The notes: generated from the letters alone by a model not told the origin. A stretch of 64,000 nucleotides of DNA from Bdellovibrionales bacterium (GCA_965203275.1 OZ241865.1:1280001-1344000); one strand, 5' to 3'; positions 4,040 through 61,811 are shown, counted from the stretch's first letter. Program-made: numbers and translations.

Positions 4040-4328
4040 CACTAAAAGTAAACTGACCTCTGGTCACTTTTGGGTAGCCAGCCCGACGGCTACCGCCGTC
4101 GATCAAAGGCTGGCTACCTCAAAAGTCCGTTTACTTTTAGTAGGAAGGATCCCTTCGTCTCTTGACCACATGTTAAGGAAAAAGTCCTATTTTACGCCTT
4201 TTGGCTGTCGTCGTCGATCAAAGGCTGGATACCTCAAAAGTCCGTTTACTTTTAGTAGGGGAGGATCCTCTCGTCTCTTAACCACATGTTAAGGAAAAAT
4301 TTCCTTTATTGCATTGAGCTTGTTTCCC
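4040..4328. repeat. Repeat mosaic: module A (4040-4183), partial A, half B
   Basis: ACTAAAAGTAAAC/GTTTACTTTTAGT outer stem, TGACC-TCT-GGTCA hairpin, CGACGGC-TACC-GCCGTCG hairpin, TGTTAAGGAAA end. Confidence 0.9.
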
Positions 4329-4530
4329 AAAAACACAATCGGCGATATAGATAAGAAAAATTTAGTATTTACAGGTGTATGAATACTTGCATATTGAGCT
4401 TTTAGCTCTTTGTATCTTTCAATATAAGGTTCAAATTCAGGATTAGTTTGCATCTGTGCAATAGTTTTGAACAAAGCTGAATGTGATCGAAATGCATTTT
4501 GAATATCAGTTAATAAGACAGGATATTCTT

Positions 4531-4791
4531 CTATTTTTTCAATTTTTCAGTTTTCACACCTTTTACGGATTGTAATTCAAGAGTGACTTTTTCTTTTCTC
4601 TTCAGATTGTCTTGCTGCACTAAGTTCCTAGGAATTGTGATCTTTAAACCAGCTTCTTTTTGATATAATACGACACTTTTTTCATTGAAGCTGTGAACAA
4701 ATCCTTTAACCTGAAACCCTGAAATACCAGCCATAGCTACAGCAGAACCAAATGAACATACAAATATGATCAATATTACTAATTTGTTCAT
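4531..4791 (-). CDS. Small basic secreted protein
   Basis: 86 aa, signal peptide, SD GGAGG upstream. Confidence 0.75.
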   Translation of the reverse strand: MNKLVILIIFVCSFGSAVAMAGISGFQVKGFVHSFNEKSVVLYQKEAGLKITIPRNLVQQDNLKRKEKVTLELQSVKGVKTEKLKK

Positions 4792-4853
4792 AACTCTTCC
4801 TCCCTTTGATATGTTTAGCTACTTTTTTAATTAAATTATTTTTAAAAATATTT

Positions 4854-5888
4854 TTAATGTGTCCCTCCTCCTGGTGCGAATCTTCTTTCATATCGATGAC
4901 TGTCGTCTATCTCTCTTCGTTGGATAAATTCTTGTACCTCAGTATAATTTCCAACATCATCTGCTTCATCATTAGCACATTCGTTAGGATCTGTAGGGCA
5001 AGTACATCGTACGGGACCAGCACCACGAATACATTCTTTCCTATCACAAATTGCACCTCCAATGACACCATCGGCCCAATCTCCATCTGCATTTTTACAT
5101 CTTATTAATGTCATACGACATTGAGTCCCTACAAGTTCTGTAGCACCTATTTGTTCACAGCTATGATAAGTTCCACCTATTTCTTCTTCAGCTCTTTCTT
5201 CAGCTTCATCTTCTCCTATTTTTTCTGTCTCAGTATAATTTCCAACATCATCTGCATCATTATCATTAGCACATTCGTTAGGATCTGTAGGGCATGAATT
5301 ACGTGGAAAACTACCACAGTCTATACTAGGACAAGATCTGCCTTGAGATGGTACACAGTTACAGGCAGGGTTTTCATAAGCAACATTACAATTCGCTGTA
5401 GCTCTAGCATTCTCTGGGATGAGAGGTTCTCCATCTTGTATACAACCAGTAACAACGATATGACATAGATTATCTTCAATATAAGTCTCTCCCGCTCTTT
5501 CACAATTACTTATACCTCCTTGGTAAACTGCACTAGATGCAACTGCTGTAGCAGTATATCTTACAAGACCATCCGAATCATAATCATTAGCACACTCGTT
5601 AGGATTCGTAGGGCATGAATTACGTTGTGCATCACCACAATGTACAGGACAAGAGTCTGAACAATTATTACATGCAGGGTCTGCATAAGCAGCATCACAA
5701 CTTGCTGTAGCGGAGGGAATAGTTCGCTCTCCATCGCTACATCCCCTGACTTCTACAATACATAAACCCTCTGTATTAACTGAGTAGGAGCCAACAACTT
5801 GACAGTCCGTGTAAGTGTCACTTTGAGCATAAACAAATATGCTACCATAAATAATACCTAAGAGTGAAAAATAAAAAAAATATTTCAT
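4854..5888 (-). CDS. Secreted Cys-rich repeat protein (3 domains ending CPT[DN]PNECAND)
   Basis: 344 aa, signal peptide, internal repeats. Confidence 0.85.
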   Translation of the reverse strand: MKYFFYFSLLGIIYGSIFVYAQSDTYTDCQVVGSYSVNTEGLCIVEVRGCSDGERTIPSATASCDAAYADPACNNCSDSCPVHCGDAQRNSCPTNPNECANDYDSDGLVRYTATAVASSAVYQGGISNCERAGETYIEDNLCHIVVTGCIQDGEPLIPENARATANCNVAYENPACNCVPSQGRSCPSIDCGSFPRNSCPTDPNECANDNDADDVGNYTETEKIGEDEAEERAEEEIGGTYHSCEQIGATELVGTQCRMTLIRCKNADGDWADGVIGGAICDRKECIRGAGPVRCTCPTDPNECANDEADDVGNYTEVQEFIQRREIDDSHRYERRFAPGGGTH

Positions 5889-5972
5889 AAGAAATCTCCA
5901 TAAAATTTTATAAAGTTTTTACTTAAATTTTAATCCATCAAATAAAAATATTATTACCATTCAATAATGATC

Positions 5973-6299
5973 TCATCTTCGAGATCTTTTTTGTTTCTTG
6001 TTTATTCTTTGAGATTTATGATTAGAAGCCGTCTTTCTTTTGGGGAAAACAACAGCAGAAACAGGAATATTTAATTTAATAGACTGACCAATTTTTTTAA
6101 ATTGACTTCTTAAAGGTCTTGAAATCTTTGATTTTTGAATTTTTAATACTGACTTGTCGTCTGTTTGAACATAATAAAAACCATTACGATAAGTTTTAAG
6201 TCGGCCCTCAACAGAGATGCTAATGTTAGCAAAAGCTGATGTTGCTAGAAAAAGAAAAACTACTCCAAAACCCAAAAAATTAAGTTTTTTATAATACAT
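5973..6299 (-). CDS. Small basic secreted protein
   Basis: 108 aa with an AFA signal-peptide cleavage motif. Confidence 0.75.
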   Translation of the reverse strand: MYYKKLNFLGFGVVFLFLATSAFANISISVEGRLKTYRNGFYYVQTDDKSVLKIQKSKISRPLRSQFKKIGQSIKLNIPVSAVVFPKRKTASNHKSQRINKKQKRSRR

Positions 6300-6454
6300 A
6301 TTAAACCCCTTATTTAATATTTAAAATAAATAGACCTACAAAAGTTTTTATATCTACTTATATTATCGATTATAAATAGAAAAAACTTTAAAGATTCTGT
6401 AAGATTTTGATTTTTTCAGATTAAAGTACCCATTTCTCCACTTTAGTCGTGGTC

Positions 6455-7256
6455 TGTTTCACTCAAAATGAGCCACACTTCTGGTGTGTTTTTGGGCATT
6501 GCTCTGACAGCTATCGCTGTCTAAAAAGAGCAATGTCTCAAAAGTCCGTTTACTTTTAGTAGGAAGGATCCCTCTTGCTTTTTAACACAATGTTAAGGAA
6601 AAAGAGTTTCATTTGTAAACCCGGTTGCTCTTGAGACAATAAAAGGACTTTTTCCTTAACATGATGTAAAGGAATAAAAGGATCCTCCTCTACTCAAAAT
6701 AAATGAATTTTCTAGGCAGTTAGCCTTTGATGACGGCGTGAGCCGTCGGGCTAAACAGCTTATTTCCTTACCATGATGTTAGGAGACGAAGATATCCTCT
6801 TTACTCAAAGTGAACAGGCTTTTGAGACAATGACCATTTTGTCAAAGGCGAAAGCCTTTGCGGTCATTGTCCAAAAGTGGCCAGAGGCCAGTTCACTTTG
6901 AGTGAAACAGAGGTGTGGTTCATTTCAAGTGCAAAAGACGGCATGATTTATTTTGAGTGAAATGTTAAGGAAAAAGTTCCTTTCTTTTTGTTTTTTTATT
7001 CTCTTTTAGATTTTGCGTAAACTCAAACAAGAAGTAATTAAAATGAGAATGGGGCAGTGGGAGACTGAAGATCTTCCGCAAATTGAGCTTGCTCCTTGAA
7101 GGCAAGCTCAATTGAGGACTTCGGAAGGCTCCCACTGCCCTATTCTCAATTAAAAACAAGATGGAAAAGCAGAATCGAAGGGCGGTGGGTGGGGTTAGGG
7201 ATCATCCTTCTGATGCCTGACTGCCGGATCCCAGATAAATTACATGTTAAGAAAAC
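6455..7256. repeat. Repeat mosaic: A(+)-B-A(-,partial), A(-), stacked ends, C (6963-7201), D
   Basis: Direct reading of the module sequences. Confidence 0.9.
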
Positions 7257-7289
7257 AGGTTTGGTGGATTGTTCAACAAACGATAATGT

Positions 7290-7553
7290 TTAGCTTAGAT
7301 TATTTAGTTTTTTCTGTATTTCTCGTATTTTGTTCTCTGTAGACTCTGTGATTTTTGCAATGGTCGAAATATCCATGTTATTTTTAAGCATTTTTAAGAT
7401 GACACTTTGTTCTCCTTCCTGTCGCCCTTCTTGTCGCCCTTCCTGTCGCCCTTTTTGTTCTCCTTCTTGCAGGCCTTCCTGTCGCCCTTTTTGTAACCCT
7501 TTTTGCAATCCTTCTTGTAATAATCTTTCTCTTGTGATCTGTAGTGGTGGCAT
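7290..7553 (-). CDS. RpnS-like C-terminal small protein from an internal start
   Basis: SD AAAGGAGG followed by ATG (MPPLQITRE..EGRQEGRQ..), 87 aa, intact. Confidence 0.6.
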   Translation of the reverse strand: MPPLQITRERLLQEGLQKGLQKGRQEGLQEGEQKGRQEGRQEGRQEGEQSVILKMLKNNMDISTIAKITESTENKIREIQKKLNNLS

Positions 7554-7634
7554 GGTTCTTTCCTCCTTTGATATATGTTTTTCTTCTATTTTTCGCAATA
7601 CTTTCCATGTAAAACTAGGATCATAAATCCTGTC

Positions 7635-8009
7635 TGTTTCACTCAAAGTGAACTGGCCTCTGGCCACTTTTGGACAATGACCGCAAAGGCTTTCGCCTTT
7701 GACAAAATGGTCATTGTCTCAAAAGCCTGTTCACTTTGAGTAGGAAGGATCCCTTCCTCTTTTGACACGATGTTAAGGAAACAAGCTGTCTCTTAACATA
7801 ATGTTAAGGGAAAAAGTTTTATTTGTAAACTCGCTTGCCCTTAAGGCAATAAAAAACTTTTTCCTTAACATGGTGTAAAGGAATAAAAAGATCCTCCTCT
7901 ACTTAAAATAAATGGATTTTCTAGGTAGTTAGCCTTTGATCGACGGCGGTAGCCGTCGGGCTAACTGCCAGAAAACATGCCAGAGGCATGATTTATTTTG
8001 AGTGAAACA
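7635..8009. mobile_element. A-B-A composite element with TGTTTCACTCAAA at both termini, inside the rpn gene
   Basis: Inverted termini; interrupts a coding sequence. Confidence 0.7.
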
Positions 8010-8539
8010 ATACTTGCACCTTTGATGATGGAAAATTCAAATATCCATGGAAACTCAATGGCATCTTCCAAGGCTCCTTACCTGAATAAACCAATACAGG
8101 AATTACCAAAGAAGGCACTTTATTTTTACCCTGTTTACTATCTTTTTCATAAATATTAGCTTGGTAATTGAGCATCTGGATAAAAACACTAGGGTCGTTA
8201 TAAGACTTATGCTCAAAAAGAAAAATAATCTCAACCATCTGCCCTGTTTTCAGTTTAACAGAAAAAATCACATCAGCCCGACGCTCTCTAAAAGCCTTAT
8301 CTATAAAAACAGTCACTCTAGATTGCAAAGTACTCCAATCAAAAAGTTCAAATTCCTCTGAAGTTAAAACCAAACGGAATAAATCTAAAATATATTGTTC
8401 CTTGCTGTAAACTTCATAAAATAAATGGTCAAATAAATGTAAGACATCACGCTTAAAACCTTTTTTGTTCTTTTTAAGATGTTTGAATTTTTTAGACATA
8501 ATCACTCCTTATGTGTTTTTGTTTCAGTAAAAATAGTCT

Positions 8540-8670
8540 TGTTTATTTTTAGTATAGAGGATCCCTCCATTTCTTGACACAATGTTAGGGAAAAAGTTCT
8601 TTCTCATGCCAGATTGCCAGATCCCGGATGCCGGATGCCAGATCCCAGATCCCAGATGCCAGGATCCCGG
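8540..8670. repeat. Right half of module A plus D heptamer tract
   Basis: ..TTTTAGT..GGATCC..TGTTAGGGAAA followed by a GATCCCG/GATGCCG/GATGCCA/GATCCCA run. Confidence 0.85.
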
Positions 8671-8713
8671 AAGAAGGGGGCTTAAGTCACGCCTGTCACA
8701 AAGTTAATGGGAA

Positions 8714-9121
8714 TTAATCAGCCTTAGGAAGTGTGATCAGTCCTATATCAGAAATACCAGCAGCATTCACTTCCCCCATAACTTCAGCAACCACCCCATA
8801 ATATGCCATTTTATCCGCTTGAATATAAATTTGTTTGTTTTGCCTGACCTCAAAAATAGCTGTAAGCTTTTGTCGCAATGATTCTATAGGTATGTGAACA
8901 GAGTCAACTTTAATTTGACCGTCTCTTTGAATGATCAATACAAAGGGATCTTCACGAGTAGCTACTCCAGAACTTGCTGTCTCTGGTAGTTGCACATCAA
9001 TACCTTGTTGCATCATAGGCGTTGTCACCATAAAGATCACTAACAGAACCAACATCACATCTACAAAGGGAGTGATATTGATTTCACTAAGCATGCTTTT
9101 TTGATGAACTGTCATGCTCAT
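8714..9121 (-). CDS. tolR: TolR/ExbD family protein
   Basis: EINITPFVDVMLVLLVIFMVTTPM motif. Confidence 0.9.
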   Translation of the reverse strand: MSMTVHQKSMLSEINITPFVDVMLVLLVIFMVTTPMMQQGIDVQLPETASSGVATREDPFVLIIQRDGQIKVDSVHIPIESLRQKLTAIFEVRQNKQIYIQADKMAYYGVVAEVMGEVNAAGISDIGLITLPKAD

Positions 9122-9864
9122 TCGTTTTCTTTTCCTTTTCTAAAGAAGTTTTTTTTAGCTATGTTTAAAAAATCAGAAACAAAATGACTCAACCCCACCT
9201 CTATTTGTTTGCACTGTGCTAAGTATTGATTATAAGCTACTACAGCAGGGATAGCAACTAACAAGCCAAAAGCGGTTGCAATCAAAGCTTCTGAAATGCC
9301 AGGGGCAACAACAGCAAGGTGAGCAGCTCCTGTTGTACCAATCTTTTGAAAGGCATTCATAATACCCCAAACAGTACCAAAAAGTCCAATAAAAGGGGAT
9401 GTGCTACCTATTGTAGCCAATAAGCTAAGACTTGATTCTAGCTTACCTGTTTCCAGTTCAGAGGCTTTTCTTAAAGCCCTTTGGACATTATCAATATCTA
9501 CTATATCAAAGGCTTGTTTTTCTTTAAATGCTTTTAAGCCTGATAGTTTAGCAAGGTGTTTAAGCTCTTCAAATCCTGCATGGAAAATAGCTTCTGATGG
9601 ACTTTCTCTTTTTTGGTTGTAATGGGTGGAGCGAGGGATATCATTCCAAGAAGAAATACTCCAAAAACGTTTTAAGAAAATATCATCTGCTTGTTTGACT
9701 TGAGAAAAATGCTTAAACTTCATAAAAATAATAGACCAAGATAAAACAGAAAAGACAATTAACACTAATAAAGTGATCTGTACAACAATGCTAGCAGATA
9801 GCACAGCATCTATGGCGTCAAATTCTATAACAGGGGTTGTGGTTTGTGCGTATAGTTTTGTCAT
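9118..9864 (-). CDS. tolQ: TolQ/ExbB/MotA proton channel
   Basis: PFIGLFGTVWGIM and APGISEALIATAFGL motifs. Confidence 0.9.
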   Translation of the reverse strand: MTKLYAQTTTPVIEFDAIDAVLSASIVVQITLLVLIVFSVLSWSIIFMKFKHFSQVKQADDIFLKRFWSISSWNDIPRSTHYNQKRESPSEAIFHAGFEELKHLAKLSGLKAFKEKQAFDIVDIDNVQRALRKASELETGKLESSLSLLATIGSTSPFIGLFGTVWGIMNAFQKIGTTGAAHLAVVAPGISEALIATAFGLLVAIPAVVAYNQYLAQCKQIEVGLSHFVSDFLNIAKKNFFRKGKENE

Positions 9865-9956
9865 ATTATTTTTTACTATAACTAATTTGTTCTTAAAAAG
9901 ATAACAAAAAAATTAAGTAAAAAAACAGCTTATTTATTTTTTTATACTCTTGTTTT

Positions 9957-10080
9957 TCCGGGATCCGGGATCCCGGGAATCGGGCAACCCGGCAACAGGC
10001 AGGAGTGAAGTGAACATCTTGTTTCCTTAACATTTCACTCAAAATGCATCATGCCGTCTTTTGCACTTGAAATGAACCAA
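9957..10080. repeat. D heptamers plus stacked module ends
   Basis: 10021-10079 is nearly the reverse complement of 6918-6973. Confidence 0.85.
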
Positions 10081-10081
10081 C

Positions 10082-10546
10082 CTACTGGCTTTTTCTGTTT
10101 TCATTGAGTCTTCTGACAGTTAATCGCAGATCAAATAAACTAATATTTCTGATTTTGCATTCGGCAGTAGGATGTTCTCTATGCCATTTAATCCTTGCTG
10201 TAGGTGGCCTATAACGTACATTAATGTAAACCTTGGGGTTAAGCACTTTAGAATTAGTTGGTAGACGAGGAGTACATTGATGTTTAAAAAAATCAATTTT
10301 AATTGTAGGTACAAGGGCCCTACTTTGATCAGATATATGCTCTATTAACATAGGACAAGATGTGATTGCTAATCGTGACTTTGTGTTTTCTTTAGGCTGA
10401 AATATTAAATATGCTTGCCCAACACTATCTAAAGTCAGCTTTCCTGTATACTTTGAATGAGAAAAACGACAATCTAAAATATTAGTATTAGCAAAAGCTA
10501 AAGGACACCATAAACATAATAAAATAAAAATCAATACATATTTCAT
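10082..10546 (-). CDS. Secreted hypothetical protein
   Basis: 154 aa, AFA signal peptide, coupled to the upstream gene. Confidence 0.75.
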   Translation of the reverse strand: MKYVLIFILLCLWCPLAFANTNILDCRFSHSKYTGKLTLDSVGQAYLIFQPKENTKSRLAITSCPMLIEHISDQSRALVPTIKIDFFKHQCTPRLPTNSKVLNPKVYINVRYRPPTARIKWHREHPTAECKIRNISLFDLRLTVRRLNENRKSQ

Positions 10547-10552
10547 TTATTT

Positions 10553-12271: not shown

Positions 12272-12571
12272 AAAAACTCTTTATCTAAGATTAATTTTTC
12301 TTGCTAACTCTTAGCACCTTTTGCATTCTGCTGTTAGTTTTTACCAATATTGCTACAATTTTCCTCCAAAATTTCTTCTAAAAGGCTAAGGATAGCAAGG
12401 AACAATAAAACACCAAGAACTTTTAATGCACTGCGTGTTAGGGGAGGAGGACAAAGATATTCCTTTGGACCTAAATATTGGCATATTGACCTCATCTATA
12501 TTTGTATCGACATAATTTATAAAAAATTTAAGATTATTTATATAAACAGGACTTTTATCAGGCTCTTTAAT

Positions 12572-12890
12572 ATTTCACTCAAAATGCATCATGCATTTTG
12601 AGTGAAATTTTAAGGAAAAAGATTTCCTTTTTTTATTTTTTTATTCTTTTTAGATTCTGCGTAACTTTCAAAAAAAATATAAATGTTATGAGTGGGAGGC
12701 GGAGGCAGGCTGGAGATCTTCCGCAGACCCGCTTGCTCTTTAAAAGCAAGCGAAGGTTGAGGACTTCGGAAGCCTGCCTCCGCATTCCACTCATAAAAAA
12801 CATACAAATAGGAAAGCAGAATCAAAGGGCGGTGGGTGGGGTTAGGGAGTTTGGTTTACTTTTAGTGAAACTAGACCACTTTTAATGAAC
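12572..12890. repeat. Palindromic A-end dyad, module C (12609-12848), stacked ends overlapping the mnmG stop
   Basis: TTTCACTCAAAATGCAT-C-ATGCATTTTGAGTGAAA, then the C stems. Confidence 0.9.
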
Positions 12891-14745: not shown

Positions 14746-14790
14746 AATTGATCATATCCCTTGTGTGAAAATAAGTTTCTTAAAATAGTT

Positions 14791-15234
14791 CTAAGATATA
14801 GCTCTCAGAGTCCATTTAGAATGAAAGGCTAGTTCTTTTGCATGCATTCTTTCAGTATCTCTATCTATATTCTTAGGTAAAATGATATCAGCATGATAAG
14901 GATTATCTTTTAAAGGTGTAGCATGTAATTGTCTTCTACTTGCAGATGCATGTACAGCTTGGATTTTAGCCCACCCGTAAAAAGAGCGTTTTTGGGATTC
15001 ATTTTTTGATCTTTGTTCTGCATTTTTATCTTGAATATCAGTTAAATCTTTTATTGAACAAAAGTCAAAACGATCTACTGAAAGAGATTGATCATCCTTT
15101 CTAAAAAATACATGGTATCTTATTTTTTTTGATTTGTTAAAACCTTTACTTGAGAAAATAGCCCTACCCAGAAAGTCTTTATCTTCAATATTTTTAGGCA
15201 GTTTTTGCATAAGTATCCTGTGATAAAGTTTCAA
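14791..15234 (-). CDS. Hypothetical protein, possible ADP-ribosyltransferase-like toxin
   Basis: R..F..LSVDR..NPYHADI pattern; last gene of an overlapping three-gene unit. Confidence 0.45.
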   Translation of the reverse strand: MKLYHRILMQKLPKNIEDKDFLGRAIFSSKGFNKSKKIRYHVFFRKDDQSLSVDRFDFCSIKDLTDIQDKNAEQRSKNESQKRSFYGWAKIQAVHASASRRQLHATPLKDNPYHADIILPKNIDRDTERMHAKELAFHSKWTLRAIS

Positions 15235-16616: not shown

Positions 16617-16688
16617 AAGTTCTTAGAGATTTATTTTTAAGAAGGATATCCACATTAATACCTAACTGTCAAGCTTTAAAATGACTTT

Positions 16689-17174: not shown

Positions 17175-17224
17175 TGGATCACCTTCAAATTATAAATCTT
17201 TACTTTAAACTACCTTAGCCTTAA

Positions 17225-18145: not shown

Positions 18146-18331
18146 TCTTTTTTAAACCTATCGTTATTTTATTCGTTGATCTTCATTTTGACTTTGATGC
18201 AATGAACTTAAATTAACTTAAACAAAGCAACTCATAGTATAACCACTGATTTTTTATTAGTAAAAAAGTTTAATGTTTAAACATTAAACAGTCATACCTC
18301 AGTCTAATCTAAAGTCATGTTGTTTGAAATA

Positions 18332-28029: not shown

Positions 28030-28491
28030 CAGGCTAACTGCCTCAAAAGCCTGTTCACTTTTAGGAAGGAGGATCTCCTCATTTCTTAACACGATGTTAA
28101 GGAAAAAGGAGTTTCTTTTTTTGTTTTTTTATTCTCTTTTAGATTCTGCGTAATTTTCAAAAAAGCATGAATATTATGAGTGGGAGGCGGGGGCAGGCTG
28201 GAGATCTTCCGCAGACCCGCTTGCTCCTTAAAAGCAAGCGAAGGTTGAGGACTTCGGAAGCCTGACTCCGCATTCCACTCATAAAAAATATACAAATGGA
28301 AAAGCAGAATCGAAGGGCGGTGGGTGGGGTTAGGGAGTTAGCTGTTTCACTCAAAGTGAACTGGCCTCTGGCCACTTTTGGGCAATGACTGCAATGGCTT
28401 TCGCCATTGGCAAAATGGTCATTGCCTCAAAAATCTATGCATTTTGAGTAGGGCGAATCTCCTTGCTTCTTGACACGATGTTAGGGAAACA
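28030..28491. repeat. Repeat mosaic: partial A, C (28095-28336), chimeric A (28343-28491)
   Basis: Direct reading; lies between convergent genes. Confidence 0.9.
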
Positions 28492-30592: not shown

Positions 30593-30954
30593 TTTCACTC
30601 AAAATGCATCATGCCTCTGGCATGTTTTTGGACAATGACCGCAATGGCTTTCGCCATTGGCAAAATGGTCATTGCCTCAAAAATCTATGCATTTTGAGTA
30701 GGGCGAATCTCCTTGCTTCTTACACCATGTTAGGGAAAATTTCTTTTATTGCCTCAAGAGCAAGCGGGCTACAATAAAGGAGTTTTTTCCTTAACATGTA
30801 GTAAAAAAACGAAGGTTTCCTCCTTACTAAAAGTGAACAGGCTTTCTAGGTTGCCAGCATTTGAGAAGGCGGTAGCCTTCGGCTGGCAACCAGAAAGTGA
30901 CCAGAGGTCAGTTCACTTTGAGTGAACCAGAGGCATGATTTATTTTGAGTGAAA
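30593..30954. mobile_element. A-B-A composite (30593-30927) plus a stacked end supplying the fumC stop
   Basis: Two different A arms in inverted orientation joined by B. Confidence 0.8.
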
Positions 30955-35246: not shown

Positions 35247-36419
35247 ATGAAACAAAATCAAGTAAAAAAATTAATAAAATTAAAATTAATTAATTTAGTG
35301 AGCTTTCTTTTAACTTTAATATTGAGTATGACACTCAATGCACAATATGCACAATCACAAGGCTTTTCTCATCTAGATCAAGCTATCGCTGAACAAGAAC
35401 TACTTGAACGTTTAATGAACATAGATCAAATGAGTTTAGAAAACTTAAGAGCTAAATTACTAGCAGCAGAAGAAGATAATGAAGGAGCTATGGCAGAAGA
35501 TGGAACTTACATCACAGAAAATGGAACATACTTCATAGAGCTATCAGAGGAAGAAGCCAATATAATAACTTTATTTCAAGATGTAGCTGATGTTTTTCAA
35601 TATGAAAATGCTGTTTCCACATTACCTTTATCCATTAGTCATTTAAGTAGTGTAAACGACCCTGATTCTACTACGAATGCTGATGTTGCAATATCACAAC
35701 AACCACAACAAGCTAACGTGCAACAAGCACCTCCACCTGTAGCCCCTCCCCCTGTAGCGGTCAAAAAAAATGGGGTGCTTAAACGTACTTTTAGTGGGCT
35801 TGGATATACATTTAAGATACTAACACCAAAACCAGTAAGAACAGCCTTTATGATAACGGCATCGGTTATTATGGGAGTATCTACCTATAAATACTTAGAA
35901 GAAAATCCTGATATAGATGGAGCTATACCTGCAAGAATTGCAATCAATGTTTCAAAAGAAGTTATAGTATTTGTATTGAAAATGACTAATGCTGCTATAG
36001 AGTTTCTTGCGAGCTTTGCCCCTGACCTCGGTGAAAATCAATCTTATCAAACCCCAACAGAGGTACCAGCACCAGCACCAGGAGGAGATACAACGCTTCA
36101 GCAAAGTCATGATGGGACTACTGCTGCCACTAGAAGCGAAATGATACTCACCGGCGGAGAAACAACACCTCCAGATCATGATGAAACTGTTGCTACTTTT
36201 GACCGCAACACACAACAAGGTGTAGAACATGTAGAACAACAACCTCCTCTGCCATCAGTTACTGAAACAGAAGTTCAAGTCCATGAACCGCATTGGATCT
36301 TGACAGTGCCGGGGCATTTGAAAGCTGTTAGAAAAGAAGTTGATGTTACTACCAATGACAGTGAACCTGCTGATTCTCTACTTACACGTATTCCTCCTAC
36401 ACGTCCTCCTTCTCAATAA
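35247..36419 (+). CDS. Exported hypothetical Pro/Thr/Gln-rich protein
   Basis: SD GAGGTG before ATG 35247; signal-like segment. Confidence 0.7.
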   Translation: MKQNQVKKLIKLKLINLVSFLLTLILSMTLNAQYAQSQGFSHLDQAIAEQELLERLMNIDQMSLENLRAKLLAAEEDNEGAMAEDGTYITENGTYFIELSEEEANIITLFQDVADVFQYENAVSTLPLSISHLSSVNDPDSTTNADVAISQQPQQANVQQAPPPVAPPPVAVKKNGVLKRTFSGLGYTFKILTPKPVRTAFMITASVIMGVSTYKYLEENPDIDGAIPARIAINVSKEVIVFVLKMTNAAIEFLASFAPDLGENQSYQTPTEVPAPAPGGDTTLQQSHDGTTAATRSEMILTGGETTPPDHDETVATFDRNTQQGVEHVEQQPPLPSVTETEVQVHEPHWILTVPGHLKAVRKEVDVTTNDSEPADSLLTRIPPTRPPSQ

Positions 36420-36423
36420 AAAT

Positions 36424-36502
36424 GGTCAGGCTTTCTAGGCGATGACCATTTTATCGATGGCGAAAGCCCATCGTGGTCATCTAGACCACTTTTAGTGAGA
36501 CA
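36424..36502. repeat. Truncated module A (reverse)
   Basis: GATGACC..GATGGC-GAAA-GCCCATC..GGTCATC followed by GACCACTTTTAGTGA. Confidence 0.8.
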
Positions 36503-54343: not shown

Positions 54344-55230
54344 TTTCACTCAAAATGAGCCACATCTCTGTTTCACTAAAAGTGGTCTGACCTCTGGTCA
54401 CTTTCTGGTTGCCAGCCGAAGGCTATTCGCCTTCTTAAATGCTGGCAACCTAGAAAGCTTGACCACTTTTAGTAAGGAGGATCCATTTCTCATTTAACAC
54501 CATGTTAAGGAAAAAGTTCTTTCTTACACCTTTTGACCACGATGGCTTTCGCCATCGGTAAAATGGTCATCACCTAGAAAGCCTGACCACTTTTAGTAAG
54601 GAGGATCTCTTCGTTTCTTAACACCATGTTAAGGATTTGTTTCACTCAAAATGCATCATGCCTCTGGCATGTTTTCTGGCAGTTAGCCCAACGGCTTATC
54701 GCCGTTGATCAAAGGCTAACTGCCTAGAAAATCCATTTATTTTGAGTAGGGAAGGATCTTCTCGTCTCTTAACATGATGTTAAGGAAACAGTTCCTTCTT
54801 ACACCTGCTTGCCTGATGCCGGATCCCGGGATCCCGGATCCCGGAAAAAATCAATTTTAACTTTAAGTGTTTTTACACAACTTGTATAAATAAGCTCCTA
54901 ATTGATCAGCTTGTTTTGCTAATTCCATACAGCCACTAAATTCCAAGTCTAGTATTGCCTGAACTGTTTTTCACTAAAAGTAAACTAGCCGTCTTTTGCA
55001 CTAAAAGTAAACTGACCTCTGGTCACTTTTGGGTTGCCAGCCGAAGGCTATTCGCCTTCTTAAATGCTGGCAACCTCAAAAGTCCGTTTACTTTTAGTAG
55101 AGGAGGATCTCTTCGTTTTTTGACTACATGTTAAGGAAAATGTCCTTCTAATGGCAGTTAGTCCGACGGCTTATCGCCGCCGATCAAAGGCTAAGCTGTT
55201 TCACAGTGGTCTAGCCTCTGGCTACTTTTT
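54344..55230. repeat. Large repeat mosaic: three full A copies (54369-54514, 54638-54790, 54999-55140), partial copies, D tract, stacked ends
   Basis: Direct reading of the module sequences. Confidence 0.9.
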
Positions 55231-55342: not shown

Positions 55343-56416
55343 ATGACAGAGAGAATTTTATTACAATTAACAATAGATGCTATTTTCAAGGCTTTTTTTG
55401 AAAATAGAAAAGATCTTTTAATTTCACTGGTAGAGAATTTTGTACCTTTGCCTAAGGGTTCTGTGATAGAGGATGTTTCATTATTAAACACAGAGCTTCT
55501 TCCCGATAAGGTTCCAGACGAATACAAATCCTTTACTTTAGATTTGCGTGTGAAATTAAGAAGACAGGTCAGAGGCGTTCTTCAAGATACAGATATTGTC
55601 CATGTAGAAGTTCAAACAACAAGTCAAAAATTTTTTACAGATCGGATATTAGTTTATGCTTCTAGGGCTTATTCTGGTCAGATAAAGAAAGGCGAAGATT
55701 TTAATCAATTACTTCCTGTGTATTCACTTGTTTTTACAACAGCTAATTTAAAAGAATTTGCAGGGATAAAGGATTACTATCATATCTGCAATATCCGTCG
55801 GACAAAACCACCAGAAGTGATTATGTCTCGTGGATTGTGTTTTGTCATTGTGGAATTAGGCAAGTTTCAGTCAAGTTTGCATGAATTATTTGACAAAAAG
55901 GCAGATTGGTGTTATCTTTTAAAGAACTCTGGTAATATGGATTTAAAGGAGTATACCAATTTTCAAAACAAGGGAGGTATTATGGCAGAAGCAGCAAAGC
56001 ACTTATGGATATTATCAAAAGATGAGACATTACAGGAACTTGCAATGGTGAAAGAGAGAGACAGAAAAGATCAAGCAGCCAGAGAAGAGGGTGCTTATGA
56101 AGAAGGAATGAAGAAAGGGATGAAGAAAGGTCGTAAGGAAGGAATGGAGGAAGGAATGGAGAAAGGAATGGAGAAAGGAATGGAGGAAGGAATGGAGAAA
56201 GGAATGGAGAAAGGAATGGAGAAAGGAATGGAGAAAGGAATGGAGAAAGGAATGGAGAAAGGAATGGAGAAAGGGATGGAGAAAGGGATGAAGAAAGGTC
56301 GTAAGGAAGGAATGGAGAAAGTGGCACAAAATATGTTGAAAGAAAATCTCAATATTTCATTGATTTCTACAATGACAGGTTTATCCAAAGATGACATTCT
56401 CAAGCTGAAAAAATAA
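55343..56416 (+). CDS. Rpn-family PD-(D/E)XK nuclease with GMEK repeats
   Basis: DAIFKAFF, LDLRV, HVEVQ, DRILVYAS; SD GGGAGG upstream. Confidence 0.9.
   Translation: MTERILLQLTIDAIFKAFFENRKDLLISLVENFVPLPKGSVIEDVSLLNTELLPDKVPDEYKSFTLDLRVKLRRQVRGVLQDTDIVHVEVQTTSQKFFTDRILVYASRAYSGQIKKGEDFNQLLPVYSLVFTTANLKEFAGIKDYYHICNIRRTKPPEVIMSRGLCFVIVELGKFQSSLHELFDKKADWCYLLKNSGNMDLKEYTNFQNKGGIMAEAAKHLWILSKDETLQELAMVKERDRKDQAAREEGAYEEGMKKGMKKGRKEGMEEGMEKGMEKGMEEGMEKGMEKGMEKGMEKGMEKGMEKGMEKGMEKGMKKGRKEGMEKVAQNMLKENLNISLISTMTGLSKDDILKLKK
56101..56321. repeat. 12-bp coding tandem repeat (GMEK/GMEE/GMKK, ~18 units)
   Basis: ggaatggagaaa repeated. Confidence 0.95.
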
Positions 56417-56421
56417 TTTGC

Positions 56422-56838
56422 TCAAAAGTAGCCAGAGGATTATCCCTAACCCCACCCCCCACCCTTTGATTGCTTTTTTCACTCAAAATGAACTGGCCTC
56501 TGGCCACTTTTGGGTAGCCAGCCCGACTGCTCACGCCGTCGTAAAAAGCTGGCTACCTCAAAAGCTTGTTCATTTTGAGTAGAGAAGGATCTCCTCATTC
56601 CTCTACACCATGTTAGGGAAAAAGTGCTTTTATTACCTTAAGAGCAAGCGGTTTACAAATGAGGGACTTTTTCCTTAACATGTAGTTAAAAAACGAGGAG
56701 ATCCTCCTTACTAAAAGTAAACGGATTTTTGAGGCATTGCTCTTTTTGGACAGCGATAGCTGTCAGAGCAATGCCCAAAAACAGCCAGAGGCTGGTTTAC
56801 TTTTAGTGAAACAGAGGCTGGTTTATTTTTAGTGAGAA
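56422..56838. mobile_element. A-B-A composite (56477-56813) with flanking fragments
   Basis: Two different A arms joined by B. Confidence 0.8.
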
Positions 56839-56852
56839 TAAAAGGAGGCGTT

Positions 56853-57167
56853 ATGGCAGAGGCAGCAAAGCACTTATGGATATTATCAAAAGATGAGACA
56901 TTACAGGAACTTGCAATGGTGAAAGAGAGAGACAGAAAAGATCAAGCAGCCAGAGAAGAGGGTGCTTATGAAGAAGGAATGAAGAAAGGAATGAAGAAAG
57001 GAATGGAAAAAGGGATGGAGAAAGGGATGGAGAAAGGTCGTAAGGAAGGAATGGAGGAAGGGATGGAGAAAGTAGCACAAAATATGTTGAAAGAAAATCT
57101 CAATATTTCATTGATCTCTACAATGACAGGTTTATCCAAAGATGACATTCTCAAGCTGAAAAAATAA
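56853..57167 (+). CDS. Stand-alone RpnS-like protein (copy of the Rpn C-terminus)
   Basis: SD AAAGGAGG plus ATG; near-identical to 55982-56416 but with fewer repeats. Confidence 0.75.
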   Translation: MAEAAKHLWILSKDETLQELAMVKERDRKDQAAREEGAYEEGMKKGMKKGMEKGMEKGMEKGRKEGMEEGMEKVAQNMLKENLNISLISTMTGLSKDDILKLKK

Positions 57168-57171
57168 ACTG

Positions 57172-57940
57172 CTCAAAAGTGACCAGAGGTCAGTTTACTT
57201 TTAGTGAAACAACTATCCCTAACCCCACCCGCCACCCTTCGATTCTGCTTTCTCATTTTGTTTTTACTTGAGGATGAGGGCAGAGGGAGCCTTCCGAAGT
57301 CCTCAATTGAGCTTGCTTTTAAGGAGCAAGCTCAATTTGCGGAAGATCTCCAGTCTCCCTCTGCCCCCATCCTCCCCTAAATGATTTTTTATTTGAGAGT
57401 TACGCAGAATCTAAAAAAAATAAAAAAACAAAAAATACTTCCTCCGGGATACGGAATCCCGGGATCCGGGATCTGGGATCCGGGATCTGGCAAGCCGGCA
57501 TCAGATCCCGGGATGCCAGATTGCTTGATCCCGGATCCCGGGAGTAAATGTTTTGTTTCCTTAACATGGTGTTAAGAGAAAAAAGGATCCTCCTCTACTC
57601 AAAATAAATGAATTTTCTAGGCAGTTAGCTTTTGATCGACGGCGGTAGCCGTCGGGCTAACTATTAGAAGAATGTTTTCCTTAACATGGTGTTAAGAAAC
57701 GAAGAGATCCTCCCTACTCAAAGTGAACAGGCTTTTGAGACAATGACCATTTTGTCAAAGGCGAAAGCCTTTGCGGTCATTGTCCAAAAGTGGCCAGAGG
57801 CCAGTTCACTTTGAGTGAAACAGAGGTCAGTTCATTTTGAGTGAAAAAAATTGAGGACTTCGGAAGGCTCACACTGCCCTATCCTCAAATAAAAATAAAA
57901 TGGAAAAGCAGAATTGAAGGGCGATGGGTGAGGTTAGGGA
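57172..57940. repeat. Repeat mosaic: A end, C(-) 57216-57435, D tract 57444-57543, two A(-), partial C
   Basis: Direct reading of the module sequences. Confidence 0.9.
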
Positions 57941-57978: not shown

Positions 57979-60147
57979 TTAGGGGGTGGGGCCGGGAAGT
58001 AAATCTTGTCTATCTTGAGGATGCCAACCTTTACTATCATACGGAAGTTGTCTATTATGATTTTGACTCCCTCTTATACAACAATGATGGTCACTTTCTG
58101 TTTTTACCTCATACACATCTGTAGTATTGCTTGACAGCTTAAATTTGAAAGGGTCATAAAAAGTAAAGTCATGCCAGTCCGTTCTACCATAGTGGTCTAA
58201 ATCCTCACAATCTTTTGTATAACAAGCATCGAGACGGCTTGGACACATATTATTGTGAAGATCGTCATTGTCTTCAAGATACTGTTGTTGACCTGTCCAA
58301 CCTGCTAATTTAGCAGCAGTGGCACAAGTAGGGTAACATTCACCAGCACTAGATACATATTTATATCCAGGAGGACAATCTCTTTTGTAAGCTCGTCTGC
58401 AACATTTATCTTCTACAGCACCTTTAATTTCCAAAACATTCCAGGTCTGTCTATCAACATCGCAATAATCCCCAGTTTGTGTTTCAACTAAGAGAGCTTT
58501 TGCAGTTGTTTTCTCAAACACCATACAACGTGGAAGGCATTGACTCCCACCTACAGGTGTAGCATAGCCTGCAAGTATTTGCTCCTGAGTACAAGTAGCA
58601 TTCACATCTTCCTCTCCCTCCTCAGATGATGATGCAGTGGAGGTGGGGCTAGATGAAGAAACGGGTACACAACCATTAGCAGCACTTGTTCCACATCCAG
58701 GGTAGTAAGGTATTGACGGTTGACCAGGAGGTCTTGGACGGGTATATATCCATCCATATTTATTTACAGAAGCTTGAGGTGTTGCACCTGATGAAGAACT
58801 TTGCATAAAGAAGGCATCCTCAACTCCCCTAACCCCTGTGCCTACTTCAGAAGATTCATCGTTACTTCCAGATCTTCCAGTGGTCGTAGATGTTGTTGAA
58901 TCTGTGCTAGATTCTGCCGGGTCAGGACTGGCCTGCCATGTTGTTGTACCTTTACCATGAATGATTTGAACTGTTCTTACGATAGCTTGATTATTAATTA
59001 AGCATTTATATGCAATGCGATCGGTCTCAACCTCTTCGACAGTTGCACAGTTACCAGTGCATGCATACCCCCAATTAGGGTCTCCACCTGAGCCTTTTTG
59101 TAAAATTTGTACAACACGATCCATAAATCTCCAGTTTTCATTTGTGTGTTGAGCTTGATCTGTTATAGTGTTTTGATGATGTTTAAAAAATGTATTAAAC
59201 TCTTCTTCATACTGCTGTCTTGTCATATCTACAACCCTCTCCTGCTCATTAGGGATATTACATCTGCCTGGGCAAGCTTCACTGTTAGGATCCTCAGAAC
59301 ATGACCTAACAATTTCACAACAACAGTTCTCTTTACAATTCTCATCCTGTGAACATTCACTACCATCAAAGTTATCTGAAGCCTCAAAATTGAAAACACA
59401 ACCATTCCCCTTTGTGCTAGGTAATTTGACTAACACCAGCTCAGATCTTTCTCTTATATTGCCTGCATGACCAGCAGGAAGTCTCTTTTTAACAAGACCT
59501 GACACCATTAAGCCAATCACATCTCCAGAGCGAAGCACTAAATTTTCTAGTTTTGAAGCCTCTGTACGTCGACCCAATGATAATCTTTTATTTGGTACCC
59601 ATCGATAATCATATAAATTTTTGATATTCTCAGCATCTAATGTGTGACAAGCCTCACCCTCTCTCATATAATCATAAGTAGCAGCAACAGACTCATCGTC
59701 ATTTAGCTTTACTAAAATCCATGGATTGCCTTCGACTTTTACATCCATATTAGGAAGTGATAAAGACGGCCATTGACCTAATTGAGTATGATCAATGCAA
59801 ATTTGTCCATTTTTTTTAATCTCTATTTTTGTTATTTTAGATGTTTCAGGCCACTTTCCTACAATTGGTTCGCCTCCCGGCGGTCCCTCATCCCCTGGAG
59901 GGACTTCAACACCAGGATCGTCTATATCTTTATCAGGGTCAGGAGGATCAGGGTCAGGGAGAACAGTATCACCGGGGCGATCTGCGGCACGATTAGAAGG
60001 ATATTCAGACGATTCTTCCCCTCCTAAAAAAGAACAGTTCATAAACATCAAAAGGCTTGCAATACTTGTTAGGCTAAGAGCCATTAATACTTTTTCTTTT
60101 TGATGATTACGTTTGACTGGAATTTTCATTTTAAATAACAACCTCAT
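57979..60147 (-). CDS. Cys-rich lipoprotein
   Basis: LMFMNC lipobox-like site, many paired Cys, Ser/Thr linkers; start uncertain. Confidence 0.8.
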   Translation of the reverse strand: MRLLFKMKIPVKRNHQKEKVLMALSLTSIASLLMFMNCSFLGGEESSEYPSNRAADRPGDTVLPDPDPPDPDKDIDDPGVEVPPGDEGPPGGEPIVGKWPETSKITKIEIKKNGQICIDHTQLGQWPSLSLPNMDVKVEGNPWILVKLNDDESVAATYDYMREGEACHTLDAENIKNLYDYRWVPNKRLSLGRRTEASKLENLVLRSGDVIGLMVSGLVKKRLPAGHAGNIRERSELVLVKLPSTKGNGCVFNFEASDNFDGSECSQDENCKENCCCEIVRSCSEDPNSEACPGRCNIPNEQERVVDMTRQQYEEEFNTFFKHHQNTITDQAQHTNENWRFMDRVVQILQKGSGGDPNWGYACTGNCATVEEVETDRIAYKCLINNQAIVRTVQIIHGKGTTTWQASPDPAESSTDSTTSTTTGRSGSNDESSEVGTGVRGVEDAFFMQSSSSGATPQASVNKYGWIYTRPRPPGQPSIPYYPGCGTSAANGCVPVSSSSPTSTASSSEEGEEDVNATCTQEQILAGYATPVGGSQCLPRCMVFEKTTAKALLVETQTGDYCDVDRQTWNVLEIKGAVEDKCCRRAYKRDCPPGYKYVSSAGECYPTCATAAKLAGWTGQQQYLEDNDDLHNNMCPSRLDACYTKDCEDLDHYGRTDWHDFTFYDPFKFKLSSNTTDVYEVKTESDHHCCIRGSQNHNRQLPYDSKGWHPQDRQDLLPGPTP

Positions 60148-60285
60148 AATCTTTTATCGGCAAAATATTGTCTTAATTTGAGTCTTTTTTTCTTAAAACC
60201 TCTTTTTTATTGTTTGATTAAAAATTTGGCTTATCTTTATATTAAAAATTGACTTATCTTTTAAAAATAATTCACAATAACCCTT

Positions 60286-60843
60286 ATGGAACAAAACCTT
60301 TCTGACCACAAATCTCAAATTATAGCTATTATAAAAAAGCGATCACTTCAAAAAGGACCTATTCGCTTAGCTTCTGGTAAGGTCAGCAATTTCTATATCG
60401 ATCTCAAACAAACTATCCTTGACCCTCAAGGACTTGACCTCTTATCAGACTTGATTTTAGAGTTCTTAAACAAAAAAAATCTTGTTGGTGTGGCAGGCTC
60501 TGGTATAGGAGCATTGCCTCTCACAACGGCTGTCACCCTAAAATCGCTAAATACTCCTAAACCCTTTCTGCATCTTTATATACGATCTCAAGTAAAGGAG
60601 TGGGGGACTAAACAAGTGATAGAAGGCACTCACAGCTTCCAACCTAAAGATAAAGTTTGGATTTTAGAAGATGTTGTCACAACAGGCGGTTCTAGCCTCT
60701 ATGCTACTCAAAAGTGTCAAGAGTTTGGTCTCCAGGTAGAAGGCATTCTCACCTGTGTTGACCGACAAGAGGGAGGGAGAGAAAAGATTGAAAATAAAGG
60801 CATTCACTTTCACAGCTTAATCCATATGTTTGATTTACACTAA
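60286..60843 (+). CDS. pyrE: Orotate phosphoribosyltransferase
   Basis: LASGKVSNFYID, EDVVTTGGS. Confidence 0.94.
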   Translation: MEQNLSDHKSQIIAIIKKRSLQKGPIRLASGKVSNFYIDLKQTILDPQGLDLLSDLILEFLNKKNLVGVAGSGIGALPLTTAVTLKSLNTPKPFLHLYIRSQVKEWGTKQVIEGTHSFQPKDKVWILEDVVTTGGSSLYATQKCQEFGLQVEGILTCVDRQEGGREKIENKGIHFHSLIHMFDLH

Positions 60844-61811
60844 AAGTAAACTGACCTCTGGTCACTTTTGGACATTGCTCTGACAGCTATCGCTGTCCAA
60901 AAAGAGCAATGTCGTTGGTTCACTAAAAGTGGTCTGACCTCTGGTCACTTTCTGATTGCCAGCCGAAGGCTATTCGCCTTCTTAAATGCTGGCAACCTAG
61001 AAAGCATAACCACTTTTAGTAGGAGGATCCTTTCCTCTTTTAACATCATGTTAAGGAAACAGAACTTTATTCGCAAACCGCTTGCTTCTGAGGTAATAAA
61101 AGAAATTTTCCTTAACATGGTGTAAAAGAATAAAAGGGTCCTCCTCTACTCAAAATGCATAGATTTTTGAGGCAATGACCATTTTGCCAACGGCGTAAGC
61201 CGTTGCGGTCATTGCCCAAAAACATGCCAGAGGCATGATGCATTTTGAGTGAAATGTTAAGGAAAAAGTCCTTTCTGATGCCGGGTTGCCAGATCCCGGA
61301 TCCCGGGTGAACACAATGTTAAGGGTTTGTTTCACTCAAAATGCATCATGCCTCTGGTTCACTAAAAGTAAACTAGCCTCTGGCTACTTTTGGGTAGCCA
61401 GCCCGACGGCTCTCGCCGTCGATCAAAGGCTGACTACCTCAAAAGCTTGTTCAATTTTAGGAAGAAGGATCACCTTGCTTTTTAACATGATGTTAAGGAA
61501 AAAAGATTTCCTTTTTTTTGTTTTTTTTATTCTTTTTTAGATTCTGCGTAATTTTCAAAAAAACATAAAATTTATGAGTGGGAGGCGGGGGCAGGCTGAA
61601 GATCTTCCGCAAATTGAGCTTGCTTTTAAGGAGCAAGCTCAATTGAGGACTTCGGAAGCCTGACCCCGCATTCCACTCATAAAAAACATACAAATGGAAA
61701 GGCAGAATCAAAAGGGTGGCGGGTGGGGTTAGGGAGTTTGTTTCACTAAAAATAAACCAGCCGTCATTTTCACTCAAAATGAATTGACCTCTGGACGCTT
61801 TTAGTGAAACA
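60838..61811. repeat. Repeat mosaic: partial A, A-B-A (60918-61254), D, A (61358-61503), C (61491-61735), stacked ends
   Basis: Direct reading; lies between convergent genes. Confidence 0.9.

Follow-up and report, generated by a model that had tools for sequence, protein, structure and literature searches.

Insertion sequences of the IS200/IS605 type have asymmetric ends without inverted repeats, marked by imperfect hairpins with an extrahelical T in which shape matters over sequence; under the IS608-like mechanism, the orientation of insertions is expected to follow the replichores, that is, the lagging strand. The sites named attC conserve shape with little sequence as well, and display extrahelical bases, a variable terminal structure and R boxes of the form RYYYAAC/GTTRRRY. 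Enterobacterial BIMEs combine a small vocabulary of modules into intergenic mosaics, and Correia/NEMIS, Nezha and RPE are bacterial MITEs (small transposable elements with inverted repeats) that invite comparison. REPINs are described as short, extragenic, high-copy, non-autonomous hairpin repeats that form diverse populations within a genome and occur as singlets, doublets and clusters (PMC3116915). Here we analyse module A, an element dispersed over a 64,000-nucleotide stretch of the chromosome of a Bdellovibrionales bacterium (GCA_965203275.1, OZ241865.1:1280001-1344000; this whole stretch is hereafter the window, and the genome G000). We take module A, with a probability of roughly 0.6, to be a non-autonomous, selfish, hairpin-shaped mobile DNA repeat that has multiplied to about 1300 copies.

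Module A is best read as close in kind to REP/REPIN repeats, to hairpin elements of the IS200/IS605 type and to the mosaic BIMEs, without displaying the defining traits of any one of them. It resembles REPINs in being short, non-autonomous, extragenic, high-copy and hairpin-forming (1318 copies, fold z about -10), in its diversity as a population inside one genome and in forming singlets, doublets and clusters. Its fold differs, being a branched, asymmetric three-way junction and not two inverted REPs: P1 and P3 together make up a single long stem, from which a side hairpin branches off on the 5' side alone. The head of module A is TYTGTTTCACT, with no GTAG/CGTC-type head seen by reading; no RAYT/Y1 gene was found in G000 or in the related genome G004; and copy number and genome share (5.8%) are unusually high. 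With the IS200/IS605 type, module A shares the absence of inverted ends and of a regular target duplication, as well as a hairpin with an extrahelical T. It differs in that this hairpin is far larger and branched, that no TnpA was found in G000 and that its copies show no replichore bias in orientation. Like BIMEs, it combines modules into mosaics within intergenic islands, but it swaps both arms of a stem together so that pairing is kept, and reading reveals no sequence relation. The size class, copy number, intergenic islands and nesting recall the MITEs listed above, whereas the unit lacks terminal inverted repeats, a fixed duplication or a parent insertion sequence with the same ends.

The tail motif of the element, TGTTARGGAAA, is found at 32 sites in the window when one mismatch is allowed, against 5.9 expected (0/100 shuffles reached 32), and exact tails number 1128 in the host chromosome, which is closed and measures 2,567,810 bp (35.1% G+C). 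Seed copies were chosen by invariant motifs alone (CCTCTGG, TTKAGTA, the tail and a CACT-like head), a procedure blind to the stems. Of the 50 distinct copies so obtained, which come from the window and loci of three genomes, alignment A1 contains 46, the three longest (with extra stubs) and one near-identical tandem copy having been omitted. A sequence profile built from A1 (nhmmer) produced 1318 matches in G000, among them 745 full, 288 5'-truncated, 210 3'-truncated and 68 internal ones, which together span 148,517 bases or 5.8% of the genome. Within the window, 26 matches lie between 4040 and 61501, 17 of them full-length (model 1-142) and 9 partial, in line with the first-pass annotation of this DNA, which had counted about 15 full and many partial copies; 5' stubs too short for the profile can be followed by reading to about 61800. 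A separate structural scan, requiring the P2 hairpin with its TCT loop and complementary P1 arms, returned 646 matches, 627 of which have a core of 90-102 nt. There are 347 distinct cores, and a single core sequence is present 20 times in identical form. This set is biased towards pairing and served for vocabulary only. Genes are spared almost entirely: none of the 875 open reading frames (ORFs) of at least 300 aa shares 100 nt or more with a copy, and only 14 of the 1535 ORFs of at least 150 aa share 30 nt or more, in a rough ORF set that covers only 78% of G000. Bases lying in 14-mers that occur at least four times make up 25.9% of the genome, and repeat islands defined by such 14-mers make up 20.0% of the chromosome.

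Read from 5' to 3', module A comprises a leader (TYTGTTT), CACT, the 13-bp 5' arm of P1, the P2 hairpin (in which CC-TCT-GG is invariant and the lower stem variable), the P3-base (CTTTTGG or CTTTCTGG) and P3 itself (9-10 bp). P3 leads into a terminal hairpin whose stem measures 6-7 bp and whose loop measures 4-5 nt. An A-rich bulge of 5-6 nt, present on the 3' side only, separates the terminal hairpin from the 3' arm of P3, and this arm is followed by one bulged base, the 3' arm of the P3-base, a 3-nt junction facing P2 and the 3' arm of P1. The fold is a three-way junction formed by the 13-bp P1, the side hairpin P2 and a 17-bp P3 with its bulged T, A-rich bulge and terminal hairpin. Beyond P1, a purine-rich and then a pyrimidine-rich stretch, usually with GGATC, precedes CATGTTARGGAAA, downstream of which 10-20 further bases end in CTTC-like words, for a total length of about 160 bp. 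The first-pass annotation had outlined this architecture correctly. The further parts that it named are all present (the terminal hairpin, the A-rich bulge on the 3' side and the segment from GGATC to the tail), and among 627 copies the bulged base at the foot of P3, given as a T, is a T in 602, a G in 21 and an A in 4. Its estimate of about 150 nt fell short, however, since the element also includes the leader TYTGTTT before CACT and some 10-20 bases past GGAAA.

The five P1 pairs, five P2 pairs and six P3 words recorded in that annotation are all present genome-wide with matching 3' arms. The P3 words proved not to be unrelated, as several differ by only one to three bases (GTAGCCAGCC/GTTGCCAGC; GCAATGACC/GCGATGACC/ACAATGACC; GCAGTTAGCC/GCAATCAGCC), and they fall into about four to five clearly distinct lineages. 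The vocabulary of G000, counting types with at least five copies, amounts to about 10 P1, 7 P2 and about 16 P3 types, and every 5' word is matched by its complement. The P3-base covaries too, TTTCTG being paired with CCTAGAAA(G/A) in 163 of 166 copies. Among 569 copies, the 10 P1 types are joined to the 16 P3 types in 48 different ways, and the P1 word ACTAAAAGTAAAC is by itself combined with nine P3 types. Such a number of combinations with matched arms indicates that paired modules are exchanged as wholes. Twelve copies carry an identical 146-nt insert between the P3-base and P3 (e.g. at G000:C1 230940, 827659 and 2552139).

That structure and not sequence is under selection, as had been proposed, is supported by the pattern of changes in A1. 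RNAalifold identified 45 pairs, 28 of which have changed on both sides. Pairing is found in 95.3% of 2059 cells, as compared to 80.5 +/- 0.5% in shuffles; double changes occupy 343 cells versus 112.5 +/- 8.8 (0/500 shuffles reached 343), and the covariation score is 0.451 versus 0.188. In a control in which the 3' partners were moved by 1-3 columns, so that relatedness was kept, pairing was 34-53% and the score at most 0.081. Double changes affect P1, P2, P3 and the terminal hairpin alike, and covariation backs this core only. In the tail helix, variation in A1 is confined to one side. A five-pair GGATC helix suggested by single-sequence DNA folds was 80.7% paired as against 78.7% in shuffles, no better than in this or in the slid control, and was for this reason left out of the supported fold. 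In a set of 686 full copies free of the pairing bias, Watson-Crick pairing reaches 96.4% in P1, 96.6% in P2 and 96.2% in the terminal hairpin; for P3 the figure is 90.7%, depressed by misaligned indels. In 505 of these copies the two arms of P1 match perfectly.

Constraint was measured as divergence from the subfamily consensus within 25 subfamilies sharing their 5' arms (448 copies). By construction the 5'-arm columns are zero, and arm figures refer to 3'-arm columns alone. The 3' arms diverge by about 0.5% in P1 and about 2% in P3. The corresponding values are 9.5% for the terminal loop, 7.8% for the junction, 15% for the GGATC segment, and 15% and 30% for the 5' arm and the loop of the tail. 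Conservation is thus far stronger at paired than at unpaired positions. Either propagation is restricted to copies with good pairing, or the two arms correct each other.

The annotation had left open whether module A is a mobile or a recombination element. Nesting, truncation, insertion in a paralogous gene and a patchy distribution favour the former, whereas an attC-like role in recombination is not supported (see below). Some copies have another copy nested in their P3, loop or bulge region; the inner copy carries along its own leader, which therefore belongs to the element. Exchange is also suggested by some nests in which the two halves of the outer copy agree in their P1 arms but differ in P3. 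Short 5' stubs, more than 100 in number, stop exactly at CCTCTG, where the next copy directly follows with its leader. The sister species has an enlarged P2 region, to which one, two or three units of about 13-14 nt (GAGGCGAGCCTCT-like) are added, with the same CCTCTGG end (loci L022, L023, L025-L027, L029, L031, L034, L036, L039, L040 and L046). This expansion, together with the stacked CCTCTG stubs in G000, points to the P2 loop as a point of breakage or joining. Arrangement is polar: full-copy neighbours no more than 400 nt apart include 256 tandem pairs (55 spaced by less than 20 nt), 95 tail-to-tail pairs (36 spaced by 40-59 nt) and 19 head-to-head pairs, and head-to-tail arrays of 158 and 235 nt are found in sister genomes.

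Interrupted genes are another sign of mobility. In three copies of an Rpn-like paralog, two 8-bp TTTTATTC repeats enclose 187 nt of inserted sequence, composed of module A plus a GGATCCC-type module. The closest paralog, at 55343-56416 of the window, is uninterrupted at the point of insertion and represents the nearest approach to an empty site. In the Rpn-like gene at 7290-8505, 231 nt are replaced by a composite of two convergent copies. A scan for split genes yielded 129 candidate pairs, nearly all of them tandem-repeat genes or module A itself; one event, that in the three Rpn paralog copies, was real, and two others were unrelated to module A.

Covariance model R1, which served for searches of other genomes, finds the element in three of the five genomes of the family: G000, the congeneric G001, and G004 from a second genus. 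It was not found in G002 and G003 of the same family even at E<=1 (150 candidates scored), nor in any of the 96 genomes of the order's 12 other families, and in a further sample of 151 genomes, taken across the phylum, G000 was the sole match; the large searches scored 21-31 candidates per genome, a depth at which weak relatives can be missed. The same architecture, built with stem words unseen in G000, occurs in the second-genus genome (L001) and in a 2.94-Mb chromosome entered as 'MAG: Bdellovibrionales bacterium'. Viral and JGI metagenome collections contained no match to the module A pattern. The status of module A as undescribed rests on Rfam and literature searches only; the literature searched gave no description of such an element, which is no proof of novelty.

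Enzymes that might move the element were sought among known families. The Y1 profile PF01797 (IS200, RAYT) gave no match in G000 or G004, while 6 of 14 control genomes matched. In the congener G001 it detects a single Y1 gene, part of an ordinary IS200-like unit that has short hairpins of its own; module A matches in this 6.5-kb locus are at best weak (31 bits), the top one lying about 1.8 kb off. A RAYT-driven repeat was rejected on these grounds: G000 and G004 have no Y1, and that of G001 has no good copy beside it. The Y2 profile (IS91, PF04986) had no match in G000, but it matched none of the 14 control genomes either. A single TnpB-type match, to a Cas12f1-like TNB zinc ribbon (29 bits), falls in a 1365-aa ORF at about G000:C1 242285, whose product could, from this similarity, be a Cas12- or TnpB-related protein. 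Multi-copy protein families, considered as hidden transposases, were searched with Pfam and NCBIfam and gave nothing useful. One of them, family 3, is a small membrane-anchored coiled-coil protein with 79 ORFs, mostly in tandem arrays; coiled-coil genes lie between the 5' and 3' halves of module A, twice in tandem, at G000:C1 921515-922100 and 1256833-1258438.

The best candidate by association is the lineage-specific family of Rpn/PD-(D/E)XK (Transposase_31) nucleases, the largest real multi-copy gene family near the repeats. Loci with the Rpn N-domain lie within 1 kb of a copy in 14 of 16 cases, as compared to 42% of the 1535 ORFs of at least 150 aa. Among 31 genomes searched, PF04754 is found in four of the five of the family and in none of the 26 others of the order. 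An apparent 140-member paralog cluster containing Rpn consists in good part of spurious ORFs across repeats, 45% of which contain the tail. The idea that Rpn genes are carriers bounded by module A ends was discarded, as constant termini are lacking in the flanks of the cluster's 22 longest ORFs. In E. coli, Rpn proteins reportedly act as non-specific endonucleases that raise RecA-independent recombination and whose cuts can prime template switching (PMC5350276). By analogy, template switching initiated by Rpn would suit the joints seen in module A.

A mobile repeat of this kind might work as follows. The fold would be read at the DNA level, as a single-strand hairpin or a cruciform, by an enzyme acting in trans, for which both the shape and a few invariant single-stranded motifs would serve as signals, namely the P2 loop, the junctions, the tail and the bulged T. 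Further propagation would be limited to copies whose stems are intact, which would explain why stems remain paired while unpaired parts drift. The stem sequences themselves change by compensatory substitution and are swapped between copies. Insertion is polar and leaves no regular target duplication, newcomers lying head to tail behind old copies or tail to tail with them. If Rpn proteins are involved, they may, speculatively, act through breaks and template switching. It is conceivable, though we think it improbable, that module A represents a new shape-defined class of mobile DNA, in which an Rpn-type PD-(D/E)XK nuclease cuts the P2 loop or the junction and primer-template switching then copies the hairpin. 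Such a process would explain the lack of target duplications, the joints at TCTG, the polar nested arrays and the swapping of stem modules.

Several observations weigh against module A being a selfish mobile repeat. Profile searches of G000 for Y1, reverse transcriptase and IS110 proteins identified no mobilising enzyme. The closed genome G003 has 16 Rpn matches, yet no element at E<=1 and no tail motif at the Rpn loci, so that Rpn is at most necessary and not sufficient. Insertions leave no regular target duplication: direct repeats of at least 7 nt flank 11 of 129 simple islands versus 8 of 129 in an offset control (islands being defined by 14-mers, since 11-mers flagged 93% of the genome), and a separate search at single copies with unique upstream sequence had only 13 qualifying copies, too few to inform. 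The 8-bp TTTTATTC repeats match poorly the sequence at the closest empty site; they may not be a duplication at all and are not counted as a proven one. No fixed 5' target word is demonstrable, because the leader travels with the element. Full copies are balanced between strands (366 plus, 379 minus), evenly so in all ten tenths of the chromosome, which speaks against an IS608-like lagging-strand mechanism and leaves the idea of a strand-specific, single-stranded substrate without support. Presence/absence polymorphism between strains could not be demonstrated, as public contigs break at repeats: those of four public runs compared to window 1-20000 end at repeat islands, and the apparent joints were cross-matches between copies; among 17 public runs, none that holds the sequence is registered as RNA. 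In the congener, gene stretches matched to G000 are only 68-77% identical and gene order is scrambled, for which reason a comparison of orthologous empty sites was given up. The complementarity of the arms could stem from repair or conversion inside hairpins and not from selection for copying; the covariation test, based on shuffles and slid partners, is not phylogenetically corrected; and the data remain compatible with a host function, for example in nucleoid structure.

The alternative that fares best, although we regard it as doubtful, is that module A is a structural repeat retained by the host in the manner of REP/BIME (for example for nucleoid organisation, topoisomerase/IHF-like binding or protection of mRNA 3' ends) and spread mainly by recombination and slippage, with no transposase dedicated to it. 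Strictly extragenic copies, mosaic combinations of modules, tandem arrays, joints at short shared words such as TCTG, and the maintenance of the element in two genera are all as expected from such a repeat, as is the failure of the Y1, reverse transcriptase and IS110 searches to reveal a transposase. However, G002 and G003 of the same family are entirely without the element, which must be dispensable. Furthermore, orientation is indifferent to genes: next to co-directional neighbours, 162 copies point the same way and 180 the opposite way, and the 291 intergenic regions occupied are convergent, divergent and tandem alike, so that all four intergenic classes, divergent promoter regions included, are represented. 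Disruption of paralogous genes and of the element's own copies also argues against a repeat kept for the host's benefit.

A cut-and-paste MITE, derived from an insertion sequence with a DDE transposase and mobilised by it in trans, appears improbable. The genome does contain an active-looking IS256-family element that makes 8-bp duplications, one module A insertion lies between 8-bp direct repeats, and convergent pairs of copies yield long inverted ends. The IS256-family element is present in seven full copies, identical over their aligned ends and belonging to a nine-ORF paralog cluster (G000:C1 214394, 377356, 432252, 626507, 1028650, 1474426 and 2239690). Its ends, GAGCATGTCC, are nevertheless unrelated to module A; two of its copies sit inside module A, which is thus its target, and it was rejected as a driver since it inserts into module A as into any other target. 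The single module A unit is without terminal inverted repeats (leader TYTGTTTCACT, far end ...AAGGAAA..CTTC), flanking direct repeats are not in excess over the control (see above), and the depletion of head-to-head pairs (19 versus 256 tandem) would be unexpected for random DDE insertion.

Strong covariation, a three-way-junction fold and invariant loops could also be taken as signs of a multi-copy structured noncoding RNA gene or of a cis-acting RNA motif. The tail segment shows 935 G·T versus 48 A·C oppositions, as for one transcribed strand, but this excess is not evidence of pairing because the 5' arm of the tail just varies between C and T, also opposite A, with 235 C·A at a single column. 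Free use of wobble pairs is the norm in structured RNAs. The core stems avoid them, and G·T is no commoner than A·C: among the 686 full copies, G·T/A·C mismatches are 67/89 in P1, 17/16 in P2, 164/268 in P3 and 67/45 in the terminal hairpin, and in helices 1-5 of A1 one-sided (wobble) changes occupy 22 cells versus 342 for double changes. Four copies folded as single-stranded DNA gave -39 to -44 kcal/mol (z -9.4 to -10.6), and the two strands of copy 4040-4181, the only one folded both ways, fold alike (z -10.0 and -10.6). An RNA gene would moreover have to exist in 745 full and 566 broken copies in 2.57 Mb, with an orientation indifferent to neighbouring genes. Rfam (15) had no match at gathering score in the 64-kb window, consistent with the earlier view that module A belongs to no known noncoding RNA family; at E<=1 it returned only miRNA-type hairpin look-alikes (20-43 bits versus cut-offs of 45-117). 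From the scarcity of wobble pairs, the folding of both strands, the lack of orientation bias and the lack of an Rfam match, we read the element as a DNA-level structure and consider an RNA highly improbable.

Least credible of these alternatives is an attC-like site, folded from one strand, at which a tyrosine recombinase would capture and shuffle cassettes: module A conserves a folded shape with extrahelical bases and little sequence, its extrahelical bases and asymmetric bulge could mark one strand, and in three cases a small gene lies between the two halves, 5' and 3', of a copy, but most copies flank no cassette, they lie in both orientations over 291 intergenic regions with no single array beside an integrase, the arms do not match the R-box consensus, and G000 has only two tyrosine recombinase genes, both Phage_integrase-type, in searches that included no intI-specific model. 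A retroelement-derived repeat (PF00078, 0 matches in G000; truncation at both ends, 288 5' and 210 3') and an IS110/bridge-RNA element (DEDD transposase PF01548, 0 matches in G000) were rejected.

Table 1. Copies of module A and neighbouring Rpn-like genes in the window
Feature	Position	Strand	Basis and remarks
Full copy	4040..4181	+	P1 ACTAAAAGTAAAC, P3 GTAGCCAGCC; nhmmer model 1-142; DNA fold -42.2 kcal/mol, z -10.0
5'-truncated copy (model 48-142), directly downstream of full copy 4040..4181	4202..4297	+	profile
Full copy	6460..6601	+	profile
5'-truncated copy (model 39-142), tail faces tail of 6460-6601	6651..6754	-	profile
Full copy	6763..6904	-	profile
Full copy, left arm of composite replacing 231 nt of Rpn-like gene	7640..7781	+	profile; DNA fold
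Full copy, right arm of composite begun by 7640..7781	7860..8004	-	profile
3' fragment (model 87-142)	8538..8593	+	profile
3' fragment (model 68-142)	28031..28105	+	profile
Full copy, member of A1	28348..28489	+	profile
Full copy, convergent with 30786-30924	30596..30738	+	profile
Full copy, convergent with 30596-30738	30786..30924	-	profile
Internal fragment (model 38-109)	36408..36480	-	profile
Full copy, preceded by 5' stub ending CTCTG	54374..54513	+	profile
5'-truncated copy (model 39-140)	54534..54635	+	profile
Full copy	54643..54788	+	profile; DNA fold
Full copy, preceded by stub	54999..55139	+	profile
Full copy, convergent with 56670-56808	56480..56621	+	profile
Full copy, convergent with 56480-56621	56670..56808	-	profile
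5' fragment (model 1-39), abuts stop of Rpn-like gene fragment	57168..57206	-	profile
5'-truncated copy (model 31-142)	57556..57668	-	profile
Full copy, among 9 copies tied at top covariance model score of 162.2 bits	57676..57817	-	profile, covariance model
3'-truncated copy (model 1-79), full copy immediately after	60838..60913	+	profile
Full copy	60921..61059	+	profile
Full copy, convergent with 60921-61059	61107..61251	-	profile
Full copy, preceded by stub ending CTCTG	61360..61501	+	profile
Short 5' stubs (P1 arm and P2 arm), below profile length	61733..61811	+	reading
Intact Rpn/Transposase_31-like gene, 357 aa, between copies; a neighbour, not shown to be part of the element	55343..56416	+	TIGR01784, 91.6 bits
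Rpn-like gene cut by composite at 7632-8012; a neighbour	7290..8505	-	sequence comparison
Rpn/Transposase_31-like C-terminal fragment	56832-57167		sequence

The Rpn/Transposase_31-like genes at 55343-56416, 7290-8505 and 56832-57167 have variable C-terminal (E/K)GM(E/K)KG repeats. Other repeat modules accompany module A in the window. Of the 1128 exact tails in G000, 219 fall outside module A matches, indicating that the tail is common to several repeat modules. A microsatellite-like module made of GGATCCC/GGGATCT/GCCGGAT often precedes or follows the tail motif (8610-8650, 54800-54845, 57440-57545 and 61275-61310). Convergent module A pairs are joined by a unit of about 70-85 nt, in which two inverted tails flank a short hairpin (TTGCYCTTRAGRCAA); these linkers are found at 6591-6661, 7802-7870, 30728-30796, 56611-56680 and 61049-61117. 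A separate long-hairpin repeat (GGGGCAGTGGGAG...GCAAGCTCAATTGAGGACTTCGGAAGGCTCCCACTGCCC), with T-rich and G-rich runs at its flanks, lies at 7050-7135, 57270-57360 and 61580-61670, and a relative is present in the genome from the other genus (L001, about 1350-1430).

Repeats with a structure, REPs for instance, are as a rule short, and a known transposase goes with them; module A is large, branched and exceptionally abundant, and it combines compensatory evolution with the exchange of paired modules in a genome that has no recognisable enzyme for it. Its more than 700 intact copies, together with those in two further genomes, constitute a natural data set on the selection of DNA shape within a genome. 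Repeat islands, at about 20% of the genome, account for the scrambled gene order of the lineage and for its broken short-read assemblies. If cutting at the P2 loop or the junction by an Rpn-type nuclease were true, module A would be the first natural DNA substrate for the widespread, functionally unclear Transposase_31 family. The element may lead to a novel mechanism of transposition or recombination, or to a role for Rpn nucleases.

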